DNA of 63,345 nucleotides, filler included, from Craspedostauros australis (GCA_030167865.1; 20 parts of 20 records of this genome joined end to end with filler, not necessarily neighbours in it), one strand, 5' to 3'. Numbered from the whole stretch's first letter, positions 673 through 35,283 are shown. Made by a program: numbers and translations. Notes: generated by a model not told the origin, from the sequence alone.

Positions 673-1742
673 TTACATGCCTATTAACCTCCATGCATGA
701 TCGAAATCGAACTCCGCGTAATTCGTCAGTAGCTGCTCGCCTGCTTTGATATCGCGTTTGGCATACGTCGCGTGCTTCCCCAACTCTTCCATCCGGGTCT
801 TCGTCAGCTTCCCATTCGTCGTCGCCGTCACATCCGATACCGTCGCATTCGATTGCGGCAGCTCCACAAGATTGACGTCGTCCACGCTCGAGCCGGTGTT
901 GAGGAAGGAACCCATATCGAGATCGCAGTAGACCACGCCGCCATGCGGACTGCTGCCTTCGGCTTTCATGCCGTAGCACCATTGCAACAAATCGCAGGCG
1001 AGATCCTGCGGCACGCTCAACAGGAACGTGCGCATCTGCCACGCTTCGGTGAATTCGGCAGAATATTGCTCATCCCAAATCTTCGTGCCCTTTGCAATAT
1101 CCTGCGCCGCGAAGACGCCTCTTCCCATGCGGGGATGGTAGCCAAGGTAGACCGGCACGGCGAATCCGTCCTCGAGCAGGTGCATGCTGGCCCATGGTCC
1201 CACGATGCTGGTGTAGAGTCCGCGCAGGTAGACCCACATGGCGTCGTCCCATAGCGGGCGTGCCGGGGCCGACGGGTATCGCGACAAGTAACATTCGAAG
1301 TTGATCCAGAAGTCATCGACCGTGCCGAGGTCCACGCTCATGAACTCCTTGCGCAGTACTTTCATCCATCCTTCTTTGGCGGTCTTTTCGTTGGAGGTCG
1401 TCTCGTTTGTTTGCGTGGCATTGTCGTCTTTCGGTGGTTGTGGTGAATCTGCTTCATCGGCCGTGACTGTTTTGGGCGGATCGTCGGATGTGACTGTTTT
1501 GGCAGCGTTGATTGGGCATGAAGGTATCAGCCGAACTCCATGCGTGTGAGCAATGATTGTATTGTATTGCATTGATTCATCATCCTGCACACAATACTTC
1601 TGTCATCAATGACTGACAGCAACAGCCAGAGCCATTGCCACACACAGAACGACGTACCTTGTCCATCGGCTGCCGCTGCCGACGTATCAATCAGCAGGCA
1701 CAACGCTGCGACGACCAGCATCATCCATGACAATTCTCTCAT
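673..1742 (-). CDS. SET-domain protein (lysine methyltransferase-like) with N-terminal signal peptide; 2 exons (1742-1658, ~1493-673)
   Basis: SET motifs GRGVFAAQDIAKGTKIW, SFLNTG and YAKRDIKAGEQLLTNY. Upstream exon MRELSWMMLVVAALCLLIDTSAAA ends at donor G|GTACGT (1657). A phase-compatible acceptor ACAG|TC lies at 1494. Confidence 0.8.
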
Positions 1743-2320: not shown

Positions 2321-3193
2321 CTACGAACACACCGACCGCCGATGCGCCGCGAAGCAATCTTCGGACGACACGGTCGTGGGTGTTGCCGTGCTCTTCGTGC
2401 AAACGTCGTTGCGCGAGGGCATGCTCGGCGGCGTATCGCGCGTGCGGCACGAGTGATCGAGGTTGCGTTCGTGCATCGTGTGCGGGCGCGTCGTCGTGCG
2501 CTGCGGCAGGAAGGGCGAGCTGTCTTTGGAGAGGCATTCGAAGCGCGTGCGCGAATGGGACGAGATGGAGACGCCGCGGCACAGCATGTGGAGGTTGTTG
2601 GCCGATGATGATGGTCGCAGTAAGATCGACGATCGTTGCAGGAAGGGCGATCGTTTGGAGATGCTGCGGGATTGGGCCGAGTCCTCGTCCTCGTTGTTGT
2701 CGTCCTCGTTATCGTTGCTGTTGTCGTCGTCATGGGTGCTGTCAATGTCCTCATCGAGGCTCTGCTGCTGGTCTATGAGCATGATCTGGTGCCTTCGTTG
2801 GCGACGCCTGGAGTAGGAGTTGCCGATGCTGTTGCGCTTGATGGTGCGCAGCGGCATGTCGATTGTGGTTGGGAAGAAGTCGCTGGGATCTTCGCACAGC
2901 AGAGACGACAGCTCTGAAGACGAGCTTGCAACGGAGGCGTCGTCGCTGAAGGATATCTCCGCGATGGACGACTGCAGCGTATCGCAGGATTCGAGGGTGA
3001 TGTAGATCTCGTTCGGTGGATGGAACGCAGCCGAGATCGATGAATCTCGCTGCAATGCCGACTGCCTCGTTCGTTCCCTGCGGTACATGGCGCGGTGCAG
3101 TGCGTGATCCGTGTCGTCCAATGCTCTGCTGCGTCCCTTCGATCGCCACTGTCGGGGGTTGCGTCCCGACTGTTGCTGCTGCTGTGCCATCAT
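2321..3193 (-). CDS. Hypothetical low-complexity Ser/Asp/Gln-rich protein
   Basis: 290-aa ORF with poly-Q start, acidic tracts and DSSPFLPQR motif. No recognisable domain. Confidence 0.5.
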   Translation of the reverse strand: MMAQQQQQSGRNPRQWRSKGRSRALDDTDHALHRAMYRRERTRQSALQRDSSISAAFHPPNEIYITLESCDTLQSSIAEISFSDDASVASSSSELSSLLCEDPSDFFPTTIDMPLRTIKRNSIGNSYSRRRQRRHQIMLIDQQQSLDEDIDSTHDDDNSNDNEDDNNEDEDSAQSRSISKRSPFLQRSSILLRPSSSANNLHMLCRGVSISSHSRTRFECLSKDSSPFLPQRTTTRPHTMHERNLDHSCRTRDTPPSMPSRNDVCTKSTATPTTVSSEDCFAAHRRSVCS

Positions 3194-5729
3194 CTTTGAT
3201 GCGATGGCTGGTTGCTTCGAACGTTTACTGGTTGGGATTATGCGCCAAGTGTCGACGAAGATAATGATGTTGGTGGTGATGAAGCTGACACCGATGATGG
3301 TATGAATGGTCAGATGCGTCGTTGGTACTCGATGCGGACCTTAGTCCATCAAGGGATCTCTGCGTGTCTGCCTCGATCTTTTGCGCACTTCATCCAACCG
3401 CTATGTGATGAAATGATGTGAACAAGGTGACGAACTGCGATGCGTGTCGCGCACACGTTGCGTACAGATGTGCCGTCATTTGAACTGCCCATGAATCTTG
3501 CGAACTCCGCGTGTTGCGGTGCTGGCTTTCGTTTGGGATGTTGGTCTTATCCGCACGTTCTTGTGACACAGTAGCTTTATCACGTGTTGTTCATTCTATC
3601 CTCGCATTTTGTACTTTTGGGTGTTTAATTGTGGGGATCAGGCGCACCTTGCCCTTATGTGATTCGAATCTGCGTTTAATGGACACGAAACAAGTCCGAC
3701 CCAACGCTGTTGACTTGATTGTGCGCACATCGGTTAAGCCATCGTCACACAATCCGAACTTTCCATATGTGTGCGTTCGTTCTGGTCCATGCACCAACAC
3801 ATAGCAAAGAAGCGATATATATGCTGGTCACCCTTCTTGCGTTCCTAATCGTGTTAATATATATACGGATTCTCCGCACGCTGTGACGATCAAAACGGAT
3901 AGGGCCTTCCGATTGGGCCTTCTACTCGTGCATGTATTTCTACTTTCTTAGCGACACATATCGCTTCCAAAACGACCAAGGAACTTTGTTTGGCGCCGAT
4001 TCTGACAACGCGGAACATTGATCGCAACAACCCTCCGATCCATCCTAACTCAAACGTCGAAACTCCCAACAAACGAACTCTCTTTTGCAGCGGAGTGTTG
4101 CCATCGTCAACGTTAGCGTTGTCGTGCTCTTCATCAAATGGCGGATTGGAGCAGAAGCACGGTAGCAATAATCTCGAAATCTCTCCAATCGTCACTCCAA
4201 AGTCAGTCTCAATCTCTTGCGCGGTGCTGCAAAGATCGCATCCATTGTCGACTGTACGTACCATACGTTCTGGTGCCAACCCTGGCGGTCTCTGCAGATT
4301 GGGTTGCGATAGACAAAATAACAAGATACAGTGTACGATCATACACATACGCCTGGAAGACAGGGCCTTTCCGTGTCTTCTCTGCAGAGCTCATTCAGTG
4401 TAGGTACATGTACGATTTCAAGATCAACGCTGCGTTTGGATTTACGCCATCACGATCGCAAACTGCGCACGATCGCACGGCACTTCTGTTCAGAAAGGTG
4501 GGCGTACGAGATGTGAAACAGCTCTGTTGACTTCGACTTTGATACGTTCGCAGCGGAGCGAAGCGTGGTACCAGGATGGGTGGCTCATGGAGTCGAATGC
4601 ACGAATACTCGCGAGGAGCGATATTCCTGCACCTCGCAGACATGCGGTGTCGGTTGACTTGCTGCATCGGTACCACTGAAGAAACTGTGATGATTTCAAC
4701 AAGCATCTTTGCTGGTTGTTGCCGTTCCACCTCGACGTTACTGTGTTAAATACAGAACGCAGGACACAGCGGAGCACTTCGAACTGAGGGGGTGATGGGA
4801 CGTTCTTCTCTTTCACGAGTTTATCCGATTGTGCCCGCCATGGCCGCTTTCTTTTGGATTGACACGTGAGGGCTGTTGGCATCCAGTCGCAAATTGTGAG
4901 AACGCAGCTGTTGGAAATCAGTGAACAGACAAACGTTCCGTTTTCCCACGTTGTGATCGTGGAGTTGGGAGCGGGGTTAGGAGAAGGGCGAAATATGCGT
5001 TGACATTAAGTACAAATGAACGATAAAGCATCACACGGTGTTTCTGTTATGCCGATGCGGGCCACAGCAGCCCACGGCAAAGCGATCACAATTTCGCCAC
5101 GTTCCTCCCGATTTTTCGAAATAACGAAACGCTGTTGGAAGCGATTGTGACATCGGTTTCGCGAGGCAGTGGAAACGCTTGTGCATTCATCACACTTCAC
5201 GCGGGGTGGTCTTGGTTTTACGCCTGTCCACGTTGATAAGTTCGGGTACAGTGTGGATCAATAATACCCCACCGTTGACAGCACCGCACTGTTCGTATGG
5301 ACGCGCATGGATGGCCACACCAACAATAAAACAAGAATGTGTCACAAAGAGCACCGATGCGTCACGCGGAGTGGCGCAAAACCCAAACATCTCCGACTAA
5401 CTCTGCCGACCAATACCAGTTTTTGTGGCCGGTGAACAACACGTCAATCATCGCGATACGACTTCACTTGGTCACAAAGTCGATCGTTGCCTTCAGAGAC
5501 ACGCAAACATACAAACACACACAAACAGATTATGCTGCCTGCCGTTACGAATAGTAGTTGACGAACGCCCACAATCCAAAACACCAGTCTCAACCGACAC
5601 AGCGCAACTCACAATCGAAGATCACCTGCCAGCCTTCTTTCAATCATCATCATCACTGCTCCCACATTTTCGATCGGACTCACATCATCATTCGCCTCAC
5701 AAAGAAGCACTACCCCATCCACGACGACA

Positions 5730-6776
5730 ATGACATCTGTGTGCTTGCAAAGCTACTTCGCCCTCCTGAAGCAGGAGTTCGGGGCCAACGCTGCCGCTGC
5801 TGCTTCCAACAACAACAGCAACAACAACAGCAACAGCAGCAGCAGCAGCAACAACACTGATAAAGGCATTGACTGCACCAGCGTCCACACGGCCTCCACA
5901 ACGACAACATCAACGTCCACCTGGACCATCGTGATGGACAACCCCCGACTGCCATCGGAAGACGCCTACTCCTTCCGCGACCGCTTCGGCCCCAGACGAT
6001 CCCAAACGGCCGTCCTCGATCGCTGGTCGTCGCATTCCTCCAGCACGTTCAACATGGACACGAGCACGCACTCGGCACCCACCATCCCCTCCACCTTCCT
6101 GCACGGCTCCACGCACTCGCGCGGCGACGAATCCGTGCGTTCCGATCCCAACCACTACTACATCCCGCAACCGCGCACGGCATGCCGCCGATGGGCACCC
6201 AACGACAGCAACCACAGCACACGATCGTCCCTGTTCTCGCGCACGCGATCGATCCGGTTGGAGGATGATCGATGCACGAGCGTGCAGGAGGAAGAAACGC
6301 GCACGACGCCGCTGTCGCCCAAGAGCGTCTCGTCAGATAGCTGCAGCGCGGATACGTTCCCACCCACCCCACCCATGATGGATAAGACGAAGCTGCGGTC
6401 GCTGCGCGAGAAGCTGAAGCCGCTGTCGGATGAGGGCGTGCCATTGACGCCATCAACGCAGCAGCGATTTGATAAGTTCCACAACATCACATCGCCGCGA
6501 TTGAAGCGCGCGGCCAAGGTGGACGTCGTGTCGCCGGCCAACCTGTCATCGTGCTACAACAATACCAACAATGCGTCGACCAACTGTTTGCAACCGCTGC
6601 GAACGTTGTCGGCATCTTCATCATCCACAGCTTCGTCGGCATCAGTGCGCAAAAGCAAGTATGCTGCATCGGATGATAACAACAGCAACAGCAGCCACAG
6701 GTCGAGAGGCAAGATCATTGCATTGGCGTCGCTCAGTACAACTGCCATTCAGTTATCGTCCTTGAACCGGATATAG
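5730..6776 (+). CDS. Hypothetical Ser/Thr/Asn-rich disordered protein
   Basis: 348-aa ORF with a C/G-ending codon bias, (AAC/AGC)n tract and a TIVMDNPR motif resembling the IVxDN motif common in diatom disordered proteins. Confidence 0.6.
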   Translation: MTSVCLQSYFALLKQEFGANAAAAASNNNSNNNSNSSSSSNNTDKGIDCTSVHTASTTTTSTSTWTIVMDNPRLPSEDAYSFRDRFGPRRSQTAVLDRWSSHSSSTFNMDTSTHSAPTIPSTFLHGSTHSRGDESVRSDPNHYYIPQPRTACRRWAPNDSNHSTRSSLFSRTRSIRLEDDRCTSVQEEETRTTPLSPKSVSSDSCSADTFPPTPPMMDKTKLRSLREKLKPLSDEGVPLTPSTQQRFDKFHNITSPRLKRAAKVDVVSPANLSSCYNNTNNASTNCLQPLRTLSASSSSTASSASVRKSKYAASDDNNSNSSHRSRGKIIALASLSTTAIQLSSLNRI

Positions 6777-7061
6777 ATTTGGCACGATGCGGCAAGGGAA
6801 GTTTTCACAACCTCATCCTCACACCGACTATGCTATTCAAACGATGTGCAATATCATGGGAGGTGCATAGACGCCAATACACAATTATACATAACAATTC
6901 ATAACGATTCAAGCACATTCACACGCACACGCAACCAAATATGGCTCCAATCCCATAGAGTAGACGCAATCTAGATGGAGAGACTTGGAACAATGCCGGC
7001 TTGTTGACTTGGTTCCTCATTCATCAATCGCCCAACCGCAGAGACAGCAACGACATCGTTG

Positions 7062-7929
7062 ATGCATCAAAAGAGGATGATTGGTGTCATCTACATTGCG
7101 TGCATGTTGGTGGCAACGGACTCACTGTCATCACCATCCCCGTCATCCTCACTCCAACGCAGAAGCGAAGCAGTAGCAGAAGAAGCAATGGGAGTGGGAG
7201 TGGGAACCACCAACCAATATGGAAGATTGCCGTGATCGACGGTGGCATCGCCGGTCTCTTCTTGGCGCATGCTTTCGAGAACAACAGCAATACCGACACC
7301 AACGACCACAACGTCGCTTGGAAGGCATCATCCGAGGCCGAGCGTATCCAGCAACAGATACGACAGCAGATCGATGGTGCCAAGATCCCCATGCACACCA
7401 TCAGGCCCATCAGCGATCGACTCATCGACAATGCCAATCGTTTCTTCGAGTTGGGGATCTACTTCCACAATCCCTTTGCGTGACGGACCAAGGTGGTGGT
7501 GGTCACCAACGGCTACCGCAACCGCAACCGCAATGGAAGCACCGGCGCAGACAAGGTCGCCGTCCTGACTGCCTGTGGTGATGCGGGGCATGCCATTCCA
7601 CAGTTCCTGGGACAGAGCACCAATCAGGCCATCCAAGACATCTGCTGTCTGGCCAACGCCATTCAGCGGTACACCATGCAGTATGATGAACAAGCCAATG
7701 ACCGGAACAGCTTCAAAGGCATCCTGCAGATAGAATACAAAGACAAGCGATGGTCCACCATCACGTCCACCATGACCATCACGGCCATCACGGCCAAGGC
7801 TGGTCTTCTGGCATACCTGGAGGCCTCGTCAGGACAGTTGGCCAAGTTCCGGGATGTGTCTTCGTCATCATGGACAAGATGGGCGTCGCGAAGAAGATCT
7901 TTCTGGATGCTGCCGTTCCGAGGGTATGA
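7062..7929 (+). pseudogene. FAD-dependent monooxygenase (zeaxanthin epoxidase/salicylate hydroxylase-like), internally deleted, copy A
   Basis: KIAVIDGGIAGL (degenerate GxGxxG) and GDAGHAIPQFLGQSTNQAIQD motifs. The central region is missing. TGA stop at 7481 and a frameshift near the 3' end. Confidence 0.8.
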
Positions 7930-8205
7930 GAATGTATGGAACGGTGTGAAATCGTGATGTGATGCAGATAGGTTCTGTGGACGGCTTTCGCTTGGTGTTG
8001 ATGGACCAGCCATACTCGTACGATCTAGACATTCCATACTTCTCACCAACCACAACTCTCAATCGCAATCACAATCATAATCACAAGCGAACACCTCCCA
8101 ATCAATCAATCAATCAATCAGCCAACCATCTTCCTTTTTCCATCTCACTCGTACCACAACACACTCACATGCACGAGAGTATCAATACTGTTTTCATGTG
8201 TTATC

Positions 8206-9645
8206 CTAATTACTCGACGAGCAGAGTCCTCCAAGGCCATCCAGGATCTCATCAATCATCGATGTACCTTTCTTTTCCTCACAGCAAGCGGAATCATCAT
8301 CAACTCCGACGAGCCGATCCGCTCTCTTGTCATCCCACGCCTGTTTCAACATCTCATTGCCTTCCAGCAGAACGTGAAAAGTCTCGAACATGGGATCCAT
8401 TGTACCCATTGTACCCCGACGTTTGCTTGTTCTCATCAGCATCTCCCCAAACAGGGCCAGTGGCCTCGACCATGTCGGAAGGGAACCCAGCACTGCTCTC
8501 ACCTTGTTGCAATGATTTCGCCGCAAGATGCGCCCAACAAGCGCATTGTACCAATGGGCATGTTCATCAGGCGGGCGTGGATAAATGTGGAGATAGGTGA
8601 GTTGGGTGGTCTGCTCCAAGGCTTGCTGAAGTGCTTTCATTTGTGCCGAGAGGGGCTCGGATAGAACTTCAAACATGCTGGAAGCACCAATGACATGGTG
8701 TGCGAGAGATGATAAGCCCTTGTTCCCCAGGAGCGATATCAATGCGTCGAACCTTGTCATCTGCTCCAGCTCCGATAACCTGTACCAAATACCCGAAACC
8801 CTGAGCTTTTCCAAGTGTGATGCATCTGAAAGGAAATTGATGATCTGGTCGATTTCTTGTCGTGAGTAGGTTCGATTTGGGTCGTAGTCCCCGCGGAAAC
8901 TGATGTTGAGCTTGTCGATGCGCTTGTTTGACTGGAATAGCTTTGCCAAGCTATCGCAAGTGACACGGGTGTCGAAAAAGGATACTTCGGTGACGCTGCA
9001 ATTGTTTGGAGACAGCCATCTGCACAAATCAGCGCCCCCATTGGCAAGCTCACAGTTTTTAAACTCAACGTATTTCGAGTTCTGGGAGATGTTGAACATG
9101 AGCTTGTCGCAACCAACAAGATCACATGAATCCAAATGCACACAATGTGTCACAAGAGGGATATCGTGGAGCTGCTTCATCTCCACGAAGTCTTGAGCCA
9201 AGCGGATGAATTGGTCGGATGAAGATTCAAATGGGTGTTTGGCAGCCAATCGAAGGACGAAGCGAATCGCTTGCTTGTCTTCTTCTCCGAATTGGTCAAT
9301 GGTACCGAATTCCAGATTCAGGGATCGAATGCGAATCCGCCCGCAGCCCTGGAGAAACGTATCGCCCCGTAGAACACGAGGTGATAAAGCAACGTACTTG
9401 TGCCACCGCTCCATCGATTCCAAGTCATCAAAGGTGAATCCTGCTTCGATGGCCATGTCCCAGTATTCCATCCGCTTGGGTTTGACACTGTAGCAGTCGA
9501 TCTGCTGTCTTGGATGACTCTGCACATTGAACACGGTCTTCGGTGACAGCTCTTTTCCATGGAGTTGTTTCCAAAACGTGTTGAAGTCCGGATCATGATG
9601 GCTGTCGGTATTGGTGTTGGCAACAGCATCCATGTTGTGGTTCAT
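8206..9645 (-). CDS. RNI-like leucine-rich-repeat protein, copy 1 (intact, 479 aa)
   Basis: Periodic LxxLxL-like units (VTEVSF, IDKLNISF, LEKLRVS, LSSLAH, LTYLHI) and a C-terminal ILRRN cap typical of algal RNI-like LRR families. Confidence 0.7.
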   Translation of the reverse strand: MNHNMDAVANTNTDSHHDPDFNTFWKQLHGKELSPKTVFNVQSHPRQQIDCYSVKPKRMEYWDMAIEAGFTFDDLESMERWHKYVALSPRVLRGDTFLQGCGRIRIRSLNLEFGTIDQFGEEDKQAIRFVLRLAAKHPFESSSDQFIRLAQDFVEMKQLHDIPLVTHCVHLDSCDLVGCDKLMFNISQNSKYVEFKNCELANGGADLCRWLSPNNCSVTEVSFFDTRVTCDSLAKLFQSNKRIDKLNISFRGDYDPNRTYSRQEIDQIINFLSDASHLEKLRVSGIWYRLSELEQMTRFDALISLLGNKGLSSLAHHVIGASSMFEVLSEPLSAQMKALQQALEQTTQLTYLHIYPRPPDEHAHWYNALVGRILRRNHCNKVRAVLGSLPTWSRPLALFGEMLMRTSKRRGTMGTMDPMFETFHVLLEGNEMLKQAWDDKRADRLVGVDDDSACCEEKKGTSMIDEILDGLGGLCSSSN

Positions 9646-10550
9646 CCTTTCTTGTTGTCGCTGTTGTTGCTGTTGGTGGTCGTCCCTGTTGGTGGTACAA
9701 TCGCACGAGTAGAGCTGGTAGAGTATGTCGTCCCAAATCAGTTGAGCTTGGATGGCGATTATGATCTCATCTGCTCAAGCTTGCTGTCCTCCATTTCATG
9801 ATTCTGTGCGTTGATCACGAAGCAACGTGTCGTCAACCAACACGCCTGCATGGACTTGCGCAGTTCCACCATGGCATGGTACGACCGTGGACAACCACAT
9901 CATGATCCAAAGCTGGCTAGCTCGCTCGCTCGCGCACACGATACGACCTTCGACGGTGCCCAACTTGGCCACGCTGTGCAGTTGCGCTTCTTCATATGAT
10001 ACCATAGTTTGTGTAGTCTGAGTACATCCCTCTGTGATGGTCTTGGGGGAGTCAACTGCGATACCATATGAATACATACTATGTAACATACTTCGGCAGT
10101 TGAATGTCATCGAACGAATGCAATGGGCAGATCCACGATGCGAGAAATCCTCCACGATGGCTTCTTCCGTGGAAATCAGAGGTGATTCTCATGTTTTGTG
10201 TCGAGAGGATGACGATCACGATGATGACGCCACTCGTGTTTCAATCTGCAACAAACGTATCCAGGACTCATCTCGCCTCACTCAATCATTGCGAACTCTG
10301 TGGCGATGATGATGGTCATGGTGCTGCTGCTACAGACATCGCTGCAGAATACTGCTACAGATCATCACAACCGCAACGCTCACATGATGATCACCGTTGC
10401 CATCAAGTATCTATCCACAGAGTACGTATATCAATACTCTCTCTCTGTTTCCAGAGAGAGAGACTTCGAACAATGCCGGCTGGTTGACTTGGTTCCTCAC
10501 TCATTGATCGCCCAACCACAGAGACAGCCGCAACAAGATGGATCACAGCA

Positions 10551-11450
10551 ATGGCTGCAATGGCATCATTGATGCATCAAAAGAGAATGATTGGTGCCAT
10601 CTACATTGCGTGCATGGTGCATGGTGGCGGCAACGCACTCACTGTCATCACCATCCCCGTCATCCTCACTCCAACGCAGAAGCGAAGCAGCAGGAGAAGC
10701 AACGGGAATGGGAATGAGAATCACCAACCAATACGGAAGATCGCAGTCATCGGTGGTGGCATCGCCGGTCTCTCCTTGGCGCATGCCTTCGAAAACATCA
10801 GCAATACCGACAACAATGTCGCTTGGAAGGCATGATCCGAGGCCCAGCGCATCCAGCAACAGATGCGACAGCAGATCGATGATGCCAAGATCCCCACGCA
10901 CACCACAAGGCCCATCATCGATCGACTCATCAACAATGCCGATCGTTTCTTCGAGTTGGGAATCTACCTCCACAATCCCTTTGCGCGATGGACGAAGGTG
11001 ATGGTGGCTACCAACTGGAATCGCAACCGCAACCGCAACCGCAATGGAAGCACCTGCGCAGACAAGGTCGCCGTCCTGACTGTCTGCGGTGATGCGGTGC
11101 ACGCTGTGCCACCGTTCCTGAAACAGGGCACCAGCCAGGCCAGCCAAGACGCCTGCTTCCTGGTCAATGCCATTCAGCGGTACACCATGCAGTACGATGA
11201 ACAAGCCAATGGCAGGATCAGCCTCGACGACATCCTGTAGACAGAATACAAAGACAAGCGATGGTCCAACACCACAGGCATCATGGACATCATGGACATC
11301 ACGTCCACCACGGCCAAGGCTGGTCTGCTGGGATACCTGGAGGCCTCGTCAGGACCGTCGGCCAAGTTCCGGGATGTGTTCTTCTTCATGATGGACAAGA
11401 TGGGCGTTGCTAAGAAGATCTTTCTGGATGCTGCCGTTCCGAGGATATGA
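10551..11450 (+). pseudogene. FAD-dependent monooxygenase, internally deleted, copy B
   Basis: KIAVIGGGIAGL and GDAVHAVPPFLKQGTSQASQD motifs. Same deletion junction (NNVAWKA) as copy A. Stops at 10833 and 11238. Confidence 0.8.
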
Positions 11451-11652
11451 TAATGTATGGAGCAATGTGAGATCGTGACGTGGTGCAGATAGGTTCCGTG
11501 GACGCTTTCGCTTGTTGTTAATATACATTCCATACTTCTCACCAACCACAGCACGCAATCACAATCACCCAACCATCTCCCTTGTTCCATCTCACTCGTA
11601 CCACAACACACTCGCATGCACCAGAGTATCAATACTGTCTTCATGTGTTATC

Positions 11653-13092
11653 CTAATTACTCTACGACCAGAGTACTCCAAGGCCATCCAGGATCGCATC
11701 AACCATCGATGTGCCTTTCTATTCCATACAGCAAGCAGAAGCATCATCAGCTCGGACGAGCCGATCCGCTCTCTTGTCATCTCATGCCTGTTCCAATGTG
11801 TCACTGCCCTGCAGCAGAACGTGAAAAGTCTCGCTCATGGGATCCATTGTACCCATTGCACCCCCACATTTGTTTGTTCTCATCAGCATCTCTCCAAACA
11901 AGGCCAGTGGCCGCGACTAAGTCTGAAGGGAACCCAGCACTGCTCTCACCTTGTTGCGATGATTTCGCTGCAAGATGCGTTCAACAAGTGCCTTGTACAC
12001 ACGGCCATGTTCTTTGGGCGGGCGTGGATACATGTGGAGAAAGGTGAGTTGGGTAGTCTGCTCCAAGGCTTGCTGAAGTTCTTCCATTTGTGCCGAGAGG
12101 GTCTCGGGTGGAACCTCAAACATGTTGGGTTGCAAGAAGTCATAGTATGTGAGAGATGACAAGCCCTTGTTTCCCAGGAGCGATATCAATGCGTCGAACC
12201 TTGCCATCTGCTCTTGTCGCGATGACCTGTTCCAAGCATCGGAAACACTGAGCTTCTTCAGGTGTGATGCATCTGAAAGGAGTTGGATGATCTGGTCGAT
12301 TTCTTGTTGTGAGTAGATGTGGTATCGCTGGTAGATCCGATAGAAACTGATGTGGAGCTTGTTGATGCGCTTGTTTGACTGGAATAGCTTTGCCAAGCTA
12401 TCGCAAGTGATGCGGGTCCAGTAAAAGGATACTTCGGTGACGCTGCAATTGCTTGGAGACAGCCATCTGCACAAATCAGCGCCCCCATTGGCGAGCTCAC
12501 AGCAACTAAACGCAACGTGTTTCGAGTTTTGGGAGATGTTGAACATGAGCTTGTCGCAACCAACAAGATCACATGAATCCAAATGCACACAATGTGTCAC
12601 AAGAGGGATATCGTGGAGCTGCTTCATCTCCACGAAGTCTTGAGCCAAGCGGATGAATTGGTCGGATGAAGATTCAAATGGGTGTTTGGCAGCCAATCGA
12701 AGGACGAAGCGAATCGCTTGCTTGTCTTCTTCTCCGAATTGGTCAATGGTACCGAATTCCAGATTCAGGGATCGAATGCAAATCCGTCCGCAGCCCCTGC
12801 GAAGCTGATCGCCCAGTAGAACACGAGGTGATAAAGCAACGTACTTGTGCTGCCGCTTCAGCGATTCCAAGTCAGCAAAGGTGAATCCTGCTTCGATGGC
12901 CATGTCCCAGTATTCCATCCGCTTGGGTGTGACACTGTAGCAGTCGACCCGCTTCGCTAGTAGGCGCTGCACATTGAACACGATCTTCGGTGACAGCTCT
13001 TTTCCATGGAGTTGTTTCCAGAAAGTCTTGAAGTCTGAACCATGATGGCTGTCGGTATTGGTGGTGGCGGCAGCATCCATGTTGCGGTTCAT
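11653..13092 (-). pseudogene. RNI-like LRR protein, copy 2, C-terminally truncated by nonsense codons
   Basis: Collinear with copy 1 without indels. Trp TGG->TAG at 11917-11919 and a second TGG->TGA downstream. It could still encode a 391-aa truncated product. Confidence 0.7.
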
Positions 13093-14111
13093 CCTTTTCT
13101 TGTCGTTGCTGTCGTCACTGTTGTTGTTGTTGTCGTTGTTGCTGTTGTCGCTGCTTCTGCTGATTGTTGTTGTTGCTGATTGTTGCTGCTGGTGGTACGA
13201 TCGTACGAGTAGATCAGGTAGAGGAGGTAGAGCAGGTAGAGTATGTGATCCCAAATCAGTTGCGCTTGAATAGCGATTATGATCTCATCTGCTCAAGTTT
13301 GCTGTCCTCCATTTCATGATCCTGTGCATTGATCACGAAGCAACGTGTCGTCAACCAACACGCCTGCATGGACTTGCGCAGTTCCACCACGGTGCACGGT
13401 ATGGTATGATGCGACCGTGGATAGCCACATCACGATCCGAAGCTGGCTCGCTCATTCGCTCGCTCACACGATACGACCTTCGATCGTGCCCAACTTGGCC
13501 ACGCTGTGCAGTTGCGCTTCTTCATATGATACCATAGTTTGTGTAGTCTGAGTACATCCCTCTGTGATGGTCTTGGGGGAGTCAACTGCGATACCATATG
13601 AATACATACTATGTAACATACTTCGGCAGTTGAATGTCATCGAACGGATGCAATGGGCGGATCCGCAATGTGAGAAATCCACGATGTGAAGAATCCACCA
13701 CGATGACTTCTTCCGTGGAAATCAGAGGCGTTTTTGTGTTTTGTGGTGGGGGTGATGATGACGATCACGATGATGACACCATTCGTGTTTCAATCTGCAA
13801 CAAACGTATCCAGGACTCATCTCGCCTCACCCAATCATTGCGAACCCTGTGGCGATGATGATGGCCATGATGGTGCTGCTGCTACAGACATCGCTGCAGA
13901 ATACTGATGCAGATCGTCACAACCGCAACGCTCACATGATGATCACCGTCGCCATCAAGCATCTATCCACAGAGTACGTATATCAATACTCTCTCTCTCG
14001 TTTCTCTCTGCTTCTAGCGAGAGACTTCGAACAATGCCGGCTGGTTGACTTGATCCCTCACTCATTGATCGCCCAACCACAGAGGCAGCCGCAACAAAAT
14101 GAATCACAGCA

Positions 14112-14972
14112 ATGGCAGCAATGACAGCAATGGCATCAATGGCATCATTGATGCATCAAAAGAGGATGATTGGTGCCATCTACATTGCGTGCATGGTGCA
14201 TGGTGGCGGCAACGAACGCACTGTCATCACCATCCCCGTCATCCTCACTCCAACGCAGAAGCGAAGCAGCAACAGTAGCAGCAGCAACGGGAATGAAAAT
14301 GAGAATCACCAACCAATACGGAAGATCGCAGTCATCGGTGGTGGCATCGCCGGTCTCTCCTTGGCGCATGCCTTCGAAAACATCAGCAACAGCAACGATG
14401 CACACAACATTGATGTGACATGCTTCGATGCGACATGCCTCGATGCGAGGCCAGAATTGGACGTCGTCGCAGGTGCGGGTGTGCAGCTTAACGGCGGCAT
14501 GGCGGTGCTGAAGCAGATCTCTCCGTCCCTGCAGCGTGCGGTGGCCGATGTCGCGCTGCCGTTGACGACCGTGCGATCCAAGACCACCAATTGGTTCTCA
14601 TCCAACAAGGAGTTCCAGCTGCTGCACTTCAATCTCAGACAAATGATCATGGATGTGGGCGGCGACACGACGAAGGCGCTGATCCAAGAGGACGGTGAAG
14701 CCATGGCTCACCATGCTCCATCATGCGAGGAGTGTTGCAGGAGGTGTTGCTGGAGGAGCTGAAGACGACGCCCGTGCATCTCCGCAAGCAGGTGGCGAAT
14801 GCGGAACATGAAAAGACGGAGGCGTGACATGCCATTCATCTTGCGTTTGGAGATGGAACGAAGGAAGGCCGGGCTGGTACGATATGGTGGTGGGCTGTGA
14901 TGGTGTCAACAGCGTCGTCAAGCAGTACATCAACAACAATGCGCGGTCCCCATCAGACAGCCAACGCAATTC
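14112..14972 (+). pseudogene. FAD-dependent monooxygenase, copy C (retains central region; frameshifted; runs into gap)
   Basis: KIAVIGGGIAGL, GAGVQLNGG, IMRGVLQEVLL (shifted frame near 14715) and YDMVVGCDGVNSVVK (DG motif). Confidence 0.75.
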
Positions 14973-15072
14973 NNNNNNNNNNNNNNNNNNNNNNNNNNNN
15001 NNNNNNNNNNNNNNNNTTAATTAATTAANNNNNNNNNNNNNNNNNNNNNNNNNNNNNNNNNNNNNNNNNNNN
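14973..15072. other. Artificial contig spacer N44-TTAATTAATTAA-N44 (first of 19)
   Basis: Six-frame-stop linker at 15017, 20901, 22701, 23892, 27211, 28328, 30090, 31422, 35225, 37984, 40314, 42852, 46199, 48423, 51792, 54105, 56235, 58830 and 60782. Confidence 0.98.
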
Positions 15073-20956: not shown

Positions 20957-22656
20957 AAGAATCCTACTACGACGCAAGCCTCACCAACGAAGGGGCCACC
21001 GACACCGAGGACGTGGATGACGACATGGGCGATGCCAACCAAGGAGAAGCGGCACGTCGCCCTATCTTCAACTTCGCCCCAGAGCTCTCTCGTGTGGACC
21101 GCATGATCGGGAACTCGACAGGACTCGTCACCAACACGGCCTGGTGCCCTCTGTGCCTCAAGCGAGGACCACTCTACGCATGGTGCGTGGAATGCCCCCA
21201 AGTTCCTTTCTTCATCCAGCTCCACAATGAGCCGCGTGGCAATGTGCCACCCAACGACGAAGAGCGCGCGGAGCGACGCACCAGACTTGAGAGAGCTGGC
21301 TCCCTCCGCAATGTGGTTCGAGCATCGCTCAGCAACGTGCTCAAAGCGGATGATGTGCGAAGTGAGCTCGCCTTACTGTGCTACGACGCTGTGGCCACCC
21401 ACAATGGGGACCGCACTCCACTGATCGAGCCACGCACGGTGTACTTCAAACTGCACGAGATCGGGATGCACACCACACTGGGAGTGTGCCGCAACCCATG
21501 CAACATCAACAACAGCTTGGAATCCCGTCGCTTCGACCCCTTCCCCAGCGATCTGATTTCGCGCATGACACACCATGCCGCGAACTCCATCGTTTGGACC
21601 TACCATCCAGGTGATGGCGGAGTCCGAAACCCAAGTCCGGAGCACTGGGTGCTGCCAATCTACTCTGAACGCGAAGAGCAACACGAAGTGGCAATGGTGG
21701 TCGGCAACACCGACAACGTCAGCGCAAGGCGCTCCTCCGTCGCACCGGACAACTACGAGGCCAACACCTGGTTGGGCGATTCTGGCGCATCGTGCCATCT
21801 CACCAACAACGATGAAGGGATGACCAACGTTCGCGTCTCTGATCAAAATGTGAAGATCGGGAGCGGGCGCTTCCTCAAGGTGACCAAGGTGGGCGACAAG
21901 CGCATGACCGTCATGCAAAGAAACGGAAGGAAGTACAACGTGGTGCTCAAGTCGGTGAAGTACGTGCCCAAGTTGTGGGTTAATCTACTGAGCATCAACA
22001 AGGCTCTCGAAAGCGGATTCAACATCAGCAACCTCGGCGTCATCATGACCCTGAAGAAAGGCAAGGCCCGCATCACCTTTGACCGCATCATGGCAACTCA
22101 TAGCGGGTTCGTTTGTGGAGTGACCATGGTGAGCAATACCAAGACGGACGACCAAGCTCATGTTGGCGTGTCAACCGTCGCACCAGTCGACATCAACACA
22201 ATCCATAAAAAGTTAGGCCACGTTGACGCGTACACCATCTCTCGAACAGCAGGGAGGTACGGNNNNNNNNNNNNNNNNNNNNNNNNNNNNNNNNNNNNNN
22301 NNNNNNNNNNNNNNNNNNNNNNNNNNNNNNNNNNNNNNNNNNNNNNNNNNNNNNNNNNNNNNNNNNNNNNNNNNNNNNNNNNNNNNNNNNNNNNNGTTCA
22401 GACACACAGCCTGGGAAGGGGCAAATACTGGCTTCTTGTGATCGACGATTACAGTGACTACTGCTGGAGTTACTTCATCACAGAGAAAAGCAACGTGGGG
22501 TCGAAGATGCTTTTGTTGTTCCAATGGCTCGAAGCGAATCAGCGAGTAACGGTTCAAAATGTCAGATGTGATAACGCAGGAGAGAATCGTTCTGCAGAGA
22601 AACTCTTACTTAACAAGGGATTCGCCCCAACCTTCGAGTACACTGCGGCATCGACT
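20957..22656 (+). mobile_element. Ty1/copia LTR retrotransposon pol fragment (extra domain, protease, GAG-pre-integrase, integrase)
   Basis: WLGDSGASCH protease, HKKLGH, integrase YWLLVIDDYSDYCWSYF and VRCDNAGEN, FEYTA. The frame is open throughout. Confidence 0.92.
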
Positions 22657-22756
22657 NNNNNNNNNNNNNNNNNNNNNNNNNNNNNNNNNNNNNNNNNNNN
22701 TTAATTAATTAANNNNNNNNNNNNNNNNNNNNNNNNNNNNNNNNNNNNNNNNNNNN

Positions 22757-31377: not shown

Positions 31378-31477
31378 NNNNNNNNNNNNNNNNNNNNNNN
31401 NNNNNNNNNNNNNNNNNNNNNTTAATTAATTAANNNNNNNNNNNNNNNNNNNNNNNNNNNNNNNNNNNNNNNNNNNN

Positions 31478-33070
31478 GGATAGGGCTCTTTGGAGCAGCG
31501 TTGGGAGATCCTTGATCTTGGACTCGATGGCGTGGACGATGTTGTGACTGATGGGCAGATCCACGGCGCGGAAGCTTCTGCTGCCTTTGCCACCTCCTTG
31601 GTTTGGGATCTTCCACTCCCACTGCGATGAGGCTTGGTTGTATGTGAGGATGTTCTTCCTCTCCAGCTCTTCCAATGCCTGCAACGTGAAGAAGATGTTG
31701 CCGTTGGTCTTGATATGCAGCTTCTTCGAGAGGACATCGATGTCTTCGCAACACAGCATACTCTCTAGCCATGCGGTGGTGTCTGCCAACGATAGGTTTG
31801 CAATGGTGACGTGGCTGAGCGTTCGATGCTGCCGGTGGGAAGCGCCGTGGCTGGGTCCACCATCGCTGTCTTCTGTCGCCTCGAGGTTTTTCAAGAAGGC
31901 CGTCGACAGCGCATGATTCGGTGGGAGGTCCAACACTTCTTCGGTGTGCGGATTCGTCTCCTGTCGGACAGCACCCACAAGGAGGAAGTTCTTGAGATCC
32001 GTGTCTTCCATCAGACTGGCCAGGAGGCGCAAGCCAACGCCGGATGACCACTGCAGATCATCCAGGAACATGTAGATGGGACGTTCCGTCGTAGATATGG
32101 CCTTGATGAACTGCATGAAGATGTACTGCAGCTGGTTCCATGAGCCGTCACCCAGCAGCTGAGCCGCTGCTGGCATGGCACTCGAAGATGGACTCTCGGT
32201 TAGGTTCTGGCTGACACTCGTACTTGTTGCAGTGCTTATAGCTCCAGCGATGAACTTCCCGTAACGGTGCTGGTTTGTGGAGCGATGAGCGATCGATCCA
32301 TCGTCCTGGATTGTTGTGTGGGGTGAGAGGATGGCAAGGGCCGGCACCACCTTGATGAGCGGAATGAATCCATCCGTGGGAAAGGCTTCCTTGACGCATT
32401 GGCGGATTCGATCGAGCTCTTCTGCCGGTCCGCGCTTGAGTTGAGACGTGAAGTCACGCATGGCCTGGATGAGGGCGGAGAAGGGATCGCTGCCGCCGGT
32501 GTACTCATCGTACTTGCCGCGCAGCACGTAGCAGCAGGTGCAGGTGTTGGCCGCTGCCTTCTTATCTTCGTTCTGTTTGTCGGTCTTCTGCTTTGGCTCT
32601 GTGTTGCAGGTGCAGCACTCTTGCAGAAAGTGATCGATCAGGGCTGATTTACCAGTTCCGCTGATACCCCATACCAGTACGGCGGGGTACACGTTGTCGT
32701 TGGCATCAGTCTCTTGCGAACTCTCTTCCTGTATGGTCGGCTTGGAGGGAGAGTTGGCAACATCGTCGGCATTGCGAGATCGCGATGATCCCATGACCTT
32801 CTTGTTGACATGATGGAGCCGCTTCAGTTCCTTTTCTCGTCCAAGAAACCACGAACCTGATCGCCATGGTGCGGTTTCCTTCGATTGATGCAGTTTCCTG
32901 GTTGGATCGGTGGAATTTCTGGGATTGTCCATGGTGGAAGGAGACAGCGGGCTGTCGTTGTTGCTATTGTTGTTGTTGTTGCTGTTCATGCCAGCCACCA
33001 TGGTTGCATCGTGCGCGAGCCCAGTGTCGTGGAGCACTTGGCTTGTTACGGGTTCGGTGATCGATGACAT
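31478..33070 (-). CDS. STAND/AAA_16 ATPase N-terminal half (same gene as 30146-31377)
   Basis: FLGREKEL, Walker A GISGTGKS, GKYD..PFSAL, Walker B FLDDLQW. Low-complexity N-terminus; start codon uncertain (33256, 33070 or later). Confidence 0.88.
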
Positions 33071-35283
33071 GGTGGTGCAGGTGGTACGGAACATACGAGG
33101 AGCTCGTGCGAGTGGAGTGTGGCTATTTTGTGTCCTCCTTTTGATGCTTCGAGTCCAGGACCAAAGAAGTGGCTGGGGCGAGAAAGCGTCATCCACTTGT
33201 TGTTGCTGGTGCCAATACCGTGTGTTCGCGCGAAGGTCGCGTCCGCACCTCTCCATGCGTGAACAGAGCCGCCTCGGTGAAGCACAAGCTCTGTTTGTGG
33301 AGATGTTGTGTTCTTTCCAACATCACAAGGAAGCGAAGGTTATCCGCGAAGTTTAAAGTCCTGCGACTAACTGAAAATATCAAGGAGTACGATCAAATAG
33401 GTTTGTACCTTAGAGAAAAAAGCCAGTCACAGTGACTATTGATGTTTCCTTGCAAATCACGACTATGTGGCCCGGTTGAGTGACGGGACCTGGAGTCCGT
33501 CCTGGAGTGGTAGCGGCACAGTCGTTAGACGAACGCCGAATGCAAAACGGTGTCGCGACAACACAAGTTGAAGAGTTTTGGTCCCTTGTTGCCACTTGTT
33601 TGCTTCCTTTTGGGAGGCACGTCGATTGCGCATTTACCACTATTCCATAGTTTGTTCCTCTGATCCGTCTTCTACGTCACCATAAACAAATCCCACTTCG
33701 TACCAAGGAAAGACGTATGTAAAACGGTTACATTGGCGTTATGGCTCCGGCCAGTTTGTCGACCAACCTTTTGTAAGACCCCGTTCAGGGTTCTCATGTA
33801 GTCCTTCGCGGATTTTTAAGATAGGCACTTAGATCATCCTATTTTGTTGTAGATAGTATATGAGCGAAGTTACAAGCTCCTGGGCCTTATAGTAAAAAAG
33901 CTTATATTTTTCGCACTAATCTACAACTAAAAACGTTGCGCATGCGGACGTGAAGGGGCAAATGGGGTTCGGAATCGCCAGTCGTGCTTCAACTTGCTGT
34001 CCAGTCGTGCCCTTGATCGACAGACTCACATTTCGCGTGGGCGAGGCAGTTGGTTGCGAACAAATGTCGAGGATTGCGCAGTGGTGGTAGGCTGTTGGAA
34101 ATCCGGGGTGGTGTGATAGTAGAAAGCTTATCGTTTGTTAGAATCTACTTCTCTGAACTGTGAGCTCTTCATTGCTCTCAATTGCAAAGTCCAATCTCCT
34201 CCTGAGATTGCCATGGGTCCCTCTGTTGGNNNAGCAGGCATCCATCTTGCATTCATCGCAAATTCATCATGGACATGCATGCACCACCGAGTACCCCATA
34301 TTCGTGCACATTAGCACGTTGCCCTCTGCTGATAGTTTCGATGCCTTAGACATCACCGAGTCGTAGGCATGACATAGATCGGCTCATTCGATCAGATCAC
34401 GATCTCACATGCGTTGCGGGAACGCCTTGGTTGGGAGCTCGTTCAGCTCCTTGATCATCAGACATCTCCGATCATCTCCGATCGACTCTGGTCGACTCCG
34501 ATCGTTTCTGATTGTTTCTTCGCCGATCACTTCACCGGCTTCCTGGATGTTCCTCATACCAGGTTCGTTCACAGGNCGTCTCACACTTCGTGATGTNGGC
34601 CTTCCTCCAGTACTCTTNTCTCATTGGTTGCGACNTGGGGGCCGTAGTCGCTCGTATCGTGATGTTGGTCACGATTCCAACATCCCCGCCCCCTGCGACA
34701 TACACGTGTGATTCGCATTCCTGTATGACCCGGTTGTGTGACGGGACCTGCAGTCGGTCCTGGAGGGGTGGCAACTTACAGGGCTTTCAGCCAAGCCACC
34801 CACATATTCATAAACTAGAACAAAATATAAGAATCATAGTGGACGCCGATTTTGCTTTAATGCCTTATTTTAATTTTTATCCACCTTTGTAGATTTACGG
34901 TCCTCTTGGTCGAATATGAACACTGCTCCGTGATGATCGCAAGGCATTGATTAGCTTTTCCGATGCAAACAACGTAATGTGCGCAGACACGTTCGGGAAA
35001 GAACTTTTGTTGACGGGTTGCGTACGGAATTTGACATTTCAGCGACGCCATTGTTCAACTTGTCCGAGCACGTTTTTGAAATAACAAACCGTTATCTGAC
35101 GTTACCATTCAAATTCAAATTTGACTCTCGTCACATGTCACCAATCTCCTCACATTTTGCCGCCAAATCGAGTTTTGCTTNNNNNNNNNNNNNNNNNNNN
35201 NNNNNNNNNNNNNNNNNNNNNNNNTTAATTAATTAANNNNNNNNNNNNNNNNNNNNNNNNNNNNNNNNNNNNNNNNNNNNTTT

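Follow-up and report, generated by a model that had tools for sequence, protein, structure and literature searches.

Two tandem copies of a gene in a 63-kb stretch of DNA from the diatom Craspedostauros australis (hereafter the window; all coordinates are counted within it, and both copies lie on the minus strand) share one frame of 1440 nt with no insertion or deletion between them, are identical over a single tract of 250 nt, and differ in short patches where runs of neighbouring codons are replaced at constant length. The predicted product is an irregular leucine-rich repeat (LRR) protein of the ribonuclease inhibitor (RI) type, and the residues that differ concentrate on its predicted strands and the loops that follow them. 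The explanation that we favour, and in which we place about half of our confidence, is a lineage-restricted RI-type LRR family shaped by tandem duplication and homogenisation between copies, in which variant patches on the binding face are swapped as short tracts or retained, with the reading frame kept and one member decaying.

A tandem duplication with two copies of one LRR gene

Repeat families spaced 3447-3585 nt apart delineate a tandem segmental duplication with a unit of ~3.5 kb, whose start is present three times (at ~6975, ~10455, and ~14016). Each full unit contains pieces resembling a flavin adenine dinucleotide (FAD)-dependent oxidoreductase on the plus strand and one 1440-nt gene on the minus strand. 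The units and the two gene copies are as follows (P0001 is a database relative described below; ORF, open reading frame):

6975..10454, unstranded: tandem unit 1 (~3.5 kb), with FAD-oxidoreductase-like pieces (plus strand), copy 1, and a conserved upstream spacer; defined by repeat families and unit alignment
10455..14015, unstranded: tandem unit 2, with copy 2; defined by repeat families and unit alignment
from ~14016: third, partial unit, running into a longer oxidoreductase-like ORF at 14112-14762
8206..9645, minus strand: copy 1, an intact, apparently intronless ORF of 479 codons that aligns end to end with P0001 (479 aa)
11653..13092, minus strand: copy 2, the same 1440-nt frame, offset from copy 1 by exactly 3447 nt

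When copy 1 was compared with copy 2 by tblastn, all 479 residues were aligned at 78.7% identity with zero gaps. The copies differ at 160 of 1440 nucleotides and at 102 of 479 residues, with no indels. Copy 2 is open from its ATG at 13092 through codon 391 (ORF 11917-13092) and is then interrupted by four stops: W392 to TAG and W437 to TGA (both from TGG), K458 to TAG, and S477 to TAG. No third copy was found in the window by tblastn (next match, E = 0.47), and ORFs at 3000-6900, judged by eye, contained nothing LRR-like. Short runs of N, 2135 N in total, are numerous in the window, the first of them beginning at 14973; the region 6900-14972, which includes both copies, is free of N.

Identical tract and variable patches

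The longest run of identity between the copies is exactly 250 nt. It covers codons 105-188, which correspond to repeats 1-3 of the predicted protein, and is embedded in a unit that is 9-11% diverged (the flanks differ at 154 of 1693 nt). From the sequences, we read this tract as a probable recent conversion tract between copy 1 and copy 2. The tract and the eight patches (residues of copy 1 / copy 2) are located as follows:

9083..9332, minus strand: identical 250-nt tract in copy 1
12530..12779, minus strand: its identical partner in copy 2
9499..9519, minus strand: patch aa 43-49, SHPRQQI / RLLAKRV; low-confidence N-terminus, outside the LRR domain
9349..9369, minus strand: patch aa 93-99, RGDTFLQ / LGDQLRR; precedes the first predicted strand
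9055..9072, minus strand: patch aa 192-197, YVEFKN / HVAFSC; strand 4, x positions changed, V193 and F195 kept
8962..8976, minus strand: patch aa 224-228, FDTRV / YWTRI; directly after strand 5
8869..8907, minus strand: patch aa 247-259, NISFRGDYDPNRT / HISFYRIYQRYHI; strand 6 and the following loop
8767..8802, minus strand: patch aa 282-293, RVSGIWYRLSEL / SVSDAWNRSSRQ; strand 7 and the following loop
8677..8703, minus strand: patch aa 315-323, AHHVIGASS / TYYDFLQPN; strand 8 and the following loop
8545..8568, minus strand: patch aa 360-367, DEHAHWYN / KEHGRVYK; after strand 9, where a long helix begins

Together the patches span 201 nt and carry 78 differences (39%), while the remaining 1236 nt carry 82 (6.6%). 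The clustering is well outside expectation: in 21-nt windows the variance-to-mean ratio of differences is 2.54, whereas 2000 permutations averaged 0.88 and never exceeded 1.54, and the same statistic is only 1.23 in the duplicated left flank. Runs of consecutive mismatches within patches reach 8 bases and some codons are changed at all three bases; the aa 315-323 patch, taken with 9 nt on each side (45 nt), contains 15 mismatches, 8 of them consecutive.

An earlier annotation of this DNA (hereafter the first-pass annotation), made by a model from the sequence alone, had reported the ~250-nt identity, eight patch pairs without change of length, and Trp-to-stop changes in copy 2. The identity was recovered at the coordinates listed, all eight pairs were located in the alignment of the copies, and the Trp-to-stop changes were confirmed at codons 392 and 437, with the stops at 458 and 477 in addition. 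The birth-and-death evolution that it had proposed fits these stops.

Two trivial sources of the patches were considered and rejected. Compensated frameshifts would leave shifted identity behind, yet shifting either copy by 1-3 nt restored identity in none of the eight patches, and gapped alignment gained little. A mutational bias specific for A, as in diversity-generating retroelements, or for another single base does not match the spectrum of changes, which is broad and runs in both directions.

Protein fold and placement of the variable residues

Two AlphaFold2 models of the protein, built from 2 and 6 sequences, have a mean predicted local distance difference test score of 54 and 59, respectively, with 70-93 in the core. 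Both contain nine strand-helix units at the same positions, the predicted strands being at aa 108-111, 146-149, 168-172, 192-196, 220-224, 245-249/251, 280-284/286, 313-317/319, and 351-355. Repeats 4-9 contain recognisable LxxLxL-like strands, such as KLNISF, KLRVS, and SLAHH. A regular RI-type repeat has 28/29 residues with the consensus LxxLxLxxN/CxL; here the strand starts are spaced irregularly, by 38, 22, 24, 28, 25, 35, 33, and 38 residues. Copy 1 thus consists of a low-confidence N-terminal part of ~105 aa, an irregular RI-type LRR domain at about aa 108-390, and a helical, low-confidence C-terminal part of ~80 residues. All seven Foldseek matches at E<=0.001 are LRR domains, the top matches including NLRP, NLRC4, TLR2, FBXL, and TIR1, and VIA-align gave Z of 12-14 to NLRP9, NLRP3, ribonuclease inhibitor, SKP2, and RanGAP. 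As modelled, the fold is an irregular alpha/beta LRR horseshoe of the RI-like (RNI-like) class.

A Pfam search of the 479 aa at E<=10 returned no LRR family and no other domain apart from a sub-threshold match to FAP206 (14 bits against a cut-off of 33). No NB-ARC or NACHT NTPase domain, kinase domain, or F-box was found by Pfam, and inspection by eye revealed no hydrophobic N-terminal segment, the N-terminus being hydrophilic. The product is probably a stand-alone intracellular LRR protein, outside the nucleotide-binding LRR (NLR), receptor-like kinase (RLK), and variable lymphocyte receptor (VLR) types.

We mapped the differences between the copies onto the first AlphaFold2 model, leaving out the identical tract and dividing residues into a strand-plus-loop class (strands together with the loop up to the next helix) and a helix side. 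The two classes differ strongly: 34 of 74 residues vary in the former and 20 of 127 in the latter (Fisher P = 6e-6). Across repeats 4-8, hydrophobic strand positions are retained (V193/F195, V221/F223, L246/I248, L281/V283, and L314), and it is the residues between and after these conserved positions that vary.

The LRR solenoid predicted by the first-pass annotation therefore holds up, since both models give nine strands and the top structural matches are LRRs of the RI or CC type. Its claim that patches of the C-terminal half coincide with strand x positions and the residues directly after each strand stands, in line with the strand-plus-loop enrichment; two of its eight patches, at aa 43-49 and 93-99, lie outside the LRR part. 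Its designation of the genes as receptors in the RLK, VLR, or NLR sense finds no support in a protein free of Pfam domains and, by eye, of a hydrophobic N-terminus.

Divergence, selection, and mutation spectrum

Codon-based tests rest on a single pair of DNA sequences, copy 1 and copy 2. Taking the duplicated non-coding flanks as a proxy for neutral divergence, we obtained the following non-synonymous and synonymous divergence (pN and pS) and their ratio (omega):

Strand plus loop: pN 0.26, pS 0.20, omega 1.36 (N versus S, p = 0.57)
Rest of gene: pN 0.081, pS 0.118, omega 0.67 (N versus S, p = 0.29)
Non-coding flanks: 0.091 (154/1693), neutral proxy

Divergence of the rest of the gene, outside strands and loops, is indistinguishable from that of the flanks. 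In strands and loops pN is 2.9-fold above the flanks (p = 1.5e-9), and pS is also above them (p = 0.012). The same coupling of silent and replacement changes is seen when hot zones are defined solely by position-1 and position-2 differences of neighbouring codons: third-position differences then climb from 0.039 to 0.22 with hot-zone density (permutation p<0.0002). The spectrum differs as well, transitions to transversions being 36:42 in patches, 54:28 outside them, and 85:44 in the flanks (p = 0.017).

Diversifying (positive) selection that acts on fresh point mutations where residues contact a ligand, with no exchange of segments, would account for the position of the variable residues on strand x positions and in the loops that follow, for a non-synonymous divergence of strands and loops about 3-fold that of the flanks, for the retained hydrophobic core positions, and for the open reading frame. 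It sits poorly with a strand-plus-loop dN/dS of 1.36 that is non-significant, with silent and third-position changes that rise alongside replacements, with up to 8 consecutive mismatches and triple-changed codons, and with patches richer in transversions than their background; moreover, the identical 250-nt tract indicates that exchange does happen. We regard this explanation as rather improbable.

The frame itself has been preserved unusually well. No indel events are found in the 1440 nt of coding sequence, whereas 17 occurred in 1931 aligned nucleotides of the flanks (12.7 expected in the coding sequence, Poisson P = 3e-6). Likewise, codons 1-391 contain no stop in either copy, against 4.5-4.8 expected when the 128 differences of this part are placed randomly with the observed spectrum, zero stops being obtained in 0.75% of trials (P = 0.0075). 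It follows from these two absences that either the reading frame was guarded in both copies across every LRR, or intact genes were the source of the differences. The tail of copy 2 (11653-11919, codons 392-479) is also indel-free, but it has 4 stops in 88 codons, three of them TAG, compared with 0.96 expected (P = 0.012). Copy 2 is therefore either a truncated gene that retains all LRRs or a young pseudogene.

The stops of the copy 2 tail belong to the case for neutral decay, in which one or both copies are pseudogenes and the patches are clusters of mutations (left by error-prone repair or template switching) or unconstrained loops. A whole-gene dN/dS of 0.92, nearly equal differences at the three codon positions (56/57/47), a coding divergence of 0.111 that equals that of the flanks, with a dS of 0.126 close to it, and the survival of the co-duplicated oxidoreductase gene only in pieces all speak for decay. 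Opposed to it are the indel-free 1440 nt, the stop-free codons 1-391 of both copies, the placement of patches in register with the LRR periodicity, the absence of a direct or inverted template near any patch, and the occurrence of relatives in a transcriptome collection (see below). The patches also exceed the neutral proxy, which is beyond the reach of relaxed constraint alone. All in all, we judge neutral decay unlikely.

Loss of constraint can bring divergence up to the neutral rate at most, and selection on point mutations neither raises silent sites nor alters the spectrum. The observations thus point to replacement by short segments that had already diverged, or to patches spared from homogenisation. 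Of the two mechanisms put forward by the first-pass annotation, positive selection is not demonstrated by the ratios given above (0.92 overall; 1.36, p = 0.57, in strands and loops); patchwork gene conversion is the better one, given the 250-nt tract, the co-rising silent sites, the transition-to-transversion ratio of the patches, and a block mosaic in the relative P0002.

Relatives and evidence for a mosaic family

Only four proteins, P0001-P0004, were recovered when 1.84 billion representatives were searched with a profile; they form one orphan family. Word-indexed searches returned the same four, one near full length and three shorter, each a singleton at the 90% cluster level. P0001 has 479 aa and 46% identity, P0002 has 246 aa, and P0003 and P0004 are labelled MMETSP1442 'Craspedosta...' (transcriptome). 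The nearest Atlas clusters, at 0.92-0.94, are Bacillariophyta hypothetical proteins and LRR_TMOD-LMOD/LRR_6 clusters, which provide a lead only. The two labelled relatives and the Bacillariophyta clusters agree well with the first-pass annotation's view that the DNA comes from a diatom, or at least a near relative of one. Two metagenome scans for DNA of the relatives yielded no confirmed locus.

P0002 and P0004 align with the LRR part without gaps and present further variants of the same length in the same patches. Where copies 1 and 2 disagree, P0002 sides with copy 2 over aa 228-337 and with copy 1 over aa 338-392, in 11 runs where 20 are expected (P = 0.002). When the state shared by the majority of the four relatives is taken as that of the family, copy 2 matches it at 20 of 28 sites within aa 189-337, and copy 1 does so at 9 of 9 within aa 338-392.

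Additional variants were revealed by one sequencing run, X1, which contains 0.08 of the stretch's words and whose RNA label is a guess. It yielded 477 short contigs 90-100% alike to the stretch (85 at >=99%, 139 at 95-99%, and 253 at 90-95%), with up to 30 contigs on one position and changes concentrated in the same patches. Individual contigs carry 9 further changes at 9046-9071 (the aa 192-197 patch), a paired 1-nt deletion and insertion at 8972/8976 (the aa 224-228 patch), or 5 changes at 12228-12239, the copy 2 equivalent of the aa 282-293 patch. In another, a copy-2-like flank is joined to a copy-1-like flank around 25 nt (aa 251-258) that are unlike either copy. These data suggest tens of variants in the same or a related organism.

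Such a multiplicity is also what could mislead an assembler of short reads: reads of a multi-copy family, or of two haplotypes, might have been joined into chimeric copies, so that the mosaic and maybe the identical tract stem from the assembly. The tens of near-identical variants in X1 are compatible with this, as are the 2135 N of the window with their many short, regularly built runs, and the small share of the stretch's words in the sole run found. But the region 6900-14972 is N-free, the units differ by 17 flank indels and run on into a third partial unit, 85 of the 477 X1 contigs are at least 99% alike to the stretch, and P0002 and P0004, which are independent of this assembly, repeat the pattern of scaffold and patches at equal length. 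We consider an assembly artefact distinctly improbable.

A model for the origin of the pair

The favoured explanation, a family of duplicated, homogenised, and patch-exchanging or patch-retaining LRR genes, would proceed as follows. Copies 1 and 2 are tandem paralogues in a raphid-diatom-like genome, duplicated within the ~3.5-kb segment, and their divergence would be a mosaic rather than a uniform build-up of point mutations. The 250-nt tract would have been homogenised recently between the copies, while the scaffold drifts at roughly the rate of the non-coding flanks. The same-length patches, at x positions and beta-to-alpha loops of repeats 4-9, stand at 3-4 times neutral divergence at silent and replacement sites alike and would represent pre-existing variant segments moved among family members by short-tract gene conversion; as an alternative to this step, selection or mismatch barriers may protect the patches from homogenisation. 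Selection would hold the frame open and tolerate or favour diversity on the binding face, and copy 2 would have shed its C-terminal tail through birth-and-death. Gene conversion as the source of the patches, selection for diversity, and any recognition function are putative elements of this scheme, deduced from the pattern of differences.

A number of observations weigh against the scheme. The whole-gene dN/dS is not above 1 (bootstrap 0.68-1.42), omega in strands and loops does not depart significantly from it, and pure fourfold sites (4/21 versus 3/45) are too few to be telling. Codon positions outside the patches differ equally (27/27/28), and amino-acid constraint outside the patches and on the helix side is undetectable, as in a decaying duplicate; the four stops in the copy 2 tail lead in the same direction. 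A search for a donor or template of the patches on both strands of the window returned only chance-level 9-11-mers. The runs test is significant in one of three single outgroups (P = 0.69 for P0004 and 0.27 for P0001), the combined majority test is borderline (P = 0.049) with block boundaries chosen post hoc, and columns that vary between the copies are more variable between P0002 and P0001 (p = 0.006), a result significant in one of four pairs. X1 may come from another strain or species and is of uncertain RNA or DNA nature, and the copies could partly be chimeras of short-read assembly.

A bolder possibility is that the patches act as cassettes: a directed process that copies short tracts from templates, whether by copy-choice or by gene conversion between tens of paralogues, would insert them into an LRR frame that stays fixed, and might conceivably be somatic or clonal too. 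We entertain it because the fixed patch length, the silent sites changing along, the distinct patch spectrum, the P0002 mosaic, and the X1 hybrid contig with its 25 nt would all fit, and we regard it as a long shot. If true, a unicellular alga would possess a combinatorial repertoire of intracellular LRR binding surfaces, comparable to the VLR or chicken immunoglobulin (Ig) systems.

Neighbouring sequence

Pieces of the FAD-dependent oxidoreductase lie on the plus strand at 7001-7957, 10551-11240, and 14112-14762, all with Pfam matches below the cut-off (E 0.002-0.1). Each unit has an N-terminal Rossmann (GxGxxG) piece and a C-terminal FAD_binding_3-like piece ~400 nt apart, and the third copy (14112) extends into a longer ORF ahead of the first N run; the oxidoreductases of units 1 and 2 seem to be relics of an internally deleted gene. 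The aa 43-49 patch has one match of an 11-mer or longer to a CAG-rich stretch of these pieces.

The spacer upstream of the LRR genes (9871-10150 versus 13401-13680) is 94-98% identical between units, which exceeds the conservation of the coding sequence; divergence of the right flank is 0.067. This spacer contains a 119-codon ORF on the minus strand (9796-10155), shortened in unit 2, and is covered by X1 contigs to ~10123, with 10124-10830 lacking X1 cover. It could be a 5′ untranslated region, a promoter, or a separate element. Just upstream of the ATG (9651-9708 versus 13099-13209), copy 2 has ~70 extra nucleotides in three insertions, which encode in-frame low-complexity sequence rich in Asn, Asp, and Ser; its ORF is open for 54 codons upstream of the shared ATG (TTG at 13254).

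Further away, the following features were noted:

673-1572, minus strand: 299-aa ORF with a SET domain (E = 2e-7)
21025-22704, plus strand: ORF with a Pol polyprotein beta-barrel domain (PF22936, E = 1e-15), retrotransposon-derived
31430-33256, minus strand: 608-aa ORF with an AAA_16 ATPase domain (E = 4e-17) and a faint nSTAND6 match (E = 0.016), a STAND-like NTPase encoded by a separate gene ~18 kb from the LRR pair

The retrotransposon-derived ORF makes the neighbourhood repeat-rich. The N runs that begin at 14973 come as pairs of 44 N with 12 bases between them (for example 14973-15016 and 15029-15072), every ~1.5-3.5 kb, a pattern that looks like regular masking or scaffolding rather than random gaps.

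Comparison with known systems

Structurally, the C. australis protein resembles ribonuclease inhibitor, NLRP, and RanGAP in its alpha/beta horseshoe with parallel strands on one face (Z 12-14 over 230-300 residues), and departs from them in sequence identity (10-18%), in strand spacing (22-38), and in having no family match at the sequence level.

Lamprey VLRs and chicken Ig genes take up variable LRR or V segments from templates, the former during assembly and the latter by gene conversion. The diatom pair has in common with these systems a conserved frame, variable segments in fixed register on the concave LRR face, and mosaic variants; unlike them, it shows no sign of somatic change, an incomplete germline gene, or a deaminase, nor of flanking cassettes in the window. 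A published account of the VLR system is PMC3900441.

The Cf-4/Cf-9 resistance gene clusters of plants are characterised by hypervariable solvent-exposed xxLxLxx residues, intergenic exchange, and birth-and-death. The arrangement described here is similar to plant resistance-gene LRR clusters in its tandem paralogues, conserved hydrophobic scaffold, variation at strand x positions and loops, signs of exchange, and one broken copy. It differs from them in that no NB-ARC, TIR, kinase, or signal/transmembrane part was detected, the repeat is of an irregular RI-type alpha/beta kind rather than the plant-specific one, omega above 1 is not reached, and two genomic copies are seen. Further clustered LRRs of plant resistance genes, as presented in the available parts of the respective papers, are those of RPP8-type NLR clusters (PMC6771003) and the coffee SH3 cluster (PMC3113787).

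Closer in lineage, the LRR-ROCO and NB-ARC-TPR candidate receptors of the stramenopile Ectocarpus undergo fast birth-and-death, with the repeat domain reshuffled from pre-existing units (Zambounis et al. 2012, PMC3341825). Going by the portion of that account at hand, the two systems share a stramenopile lineage and a diversified repeat domain. In Ectocarpus, however, every repeat occupies an exon of its own and shuffling involves entire exons, whereas the diatom ORF is apparently intronless and of fixed length, with patches of 15-39 nt within repeats, and its protein lacks the ROC-COR GTPase domain of LRR-ROCO.

Among diatoms, LRR proteins lead the tandem-duplicate classes of the benthic raphid Seminavis robusta, where tandem duplicates are less constrained (PMC7335047), and Pseudo-nitzschia multistriata has LRR kinases with Ka:Ks>1, two fast-evolving LRR genes being noted there (PMC5485032). 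These accounts, in the parts available, give family counts and whole-gene Ka:Ks, with no anatomy of scaffold and patches (PMC7335047, PMC5485032). The present family is set apart from other diatom LRR genes by the lack of a Pfam LRR match and by having four relatives among 1.84 billion representatives. Within the library searched, no paper united diatom, LRR, hypervariability, and gene conversion; the literature searched on tandem diatom LRR expansions gives counts, leaving the fine-scale pattern of variation undescribed.

How diatoms recognise bacteria, viruses, parasites, and mates is little known, and the pair constitutes a compact, testable case of 479 codons with about eight fixed-length patches and signs of exchange. 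Should the family turn out to be large, with patches under exchange or selection, it would count as a candidate repertoire for recognition in diatoms and a handy scaffold for binding studies; otherwise the pair is an ordinary half-decayed tandem duplicate. Comparable diversification is already known in plants, animals, and Ectocarpus, and tandem LRR expansion and fast LRR evolution are already known in diatoms.

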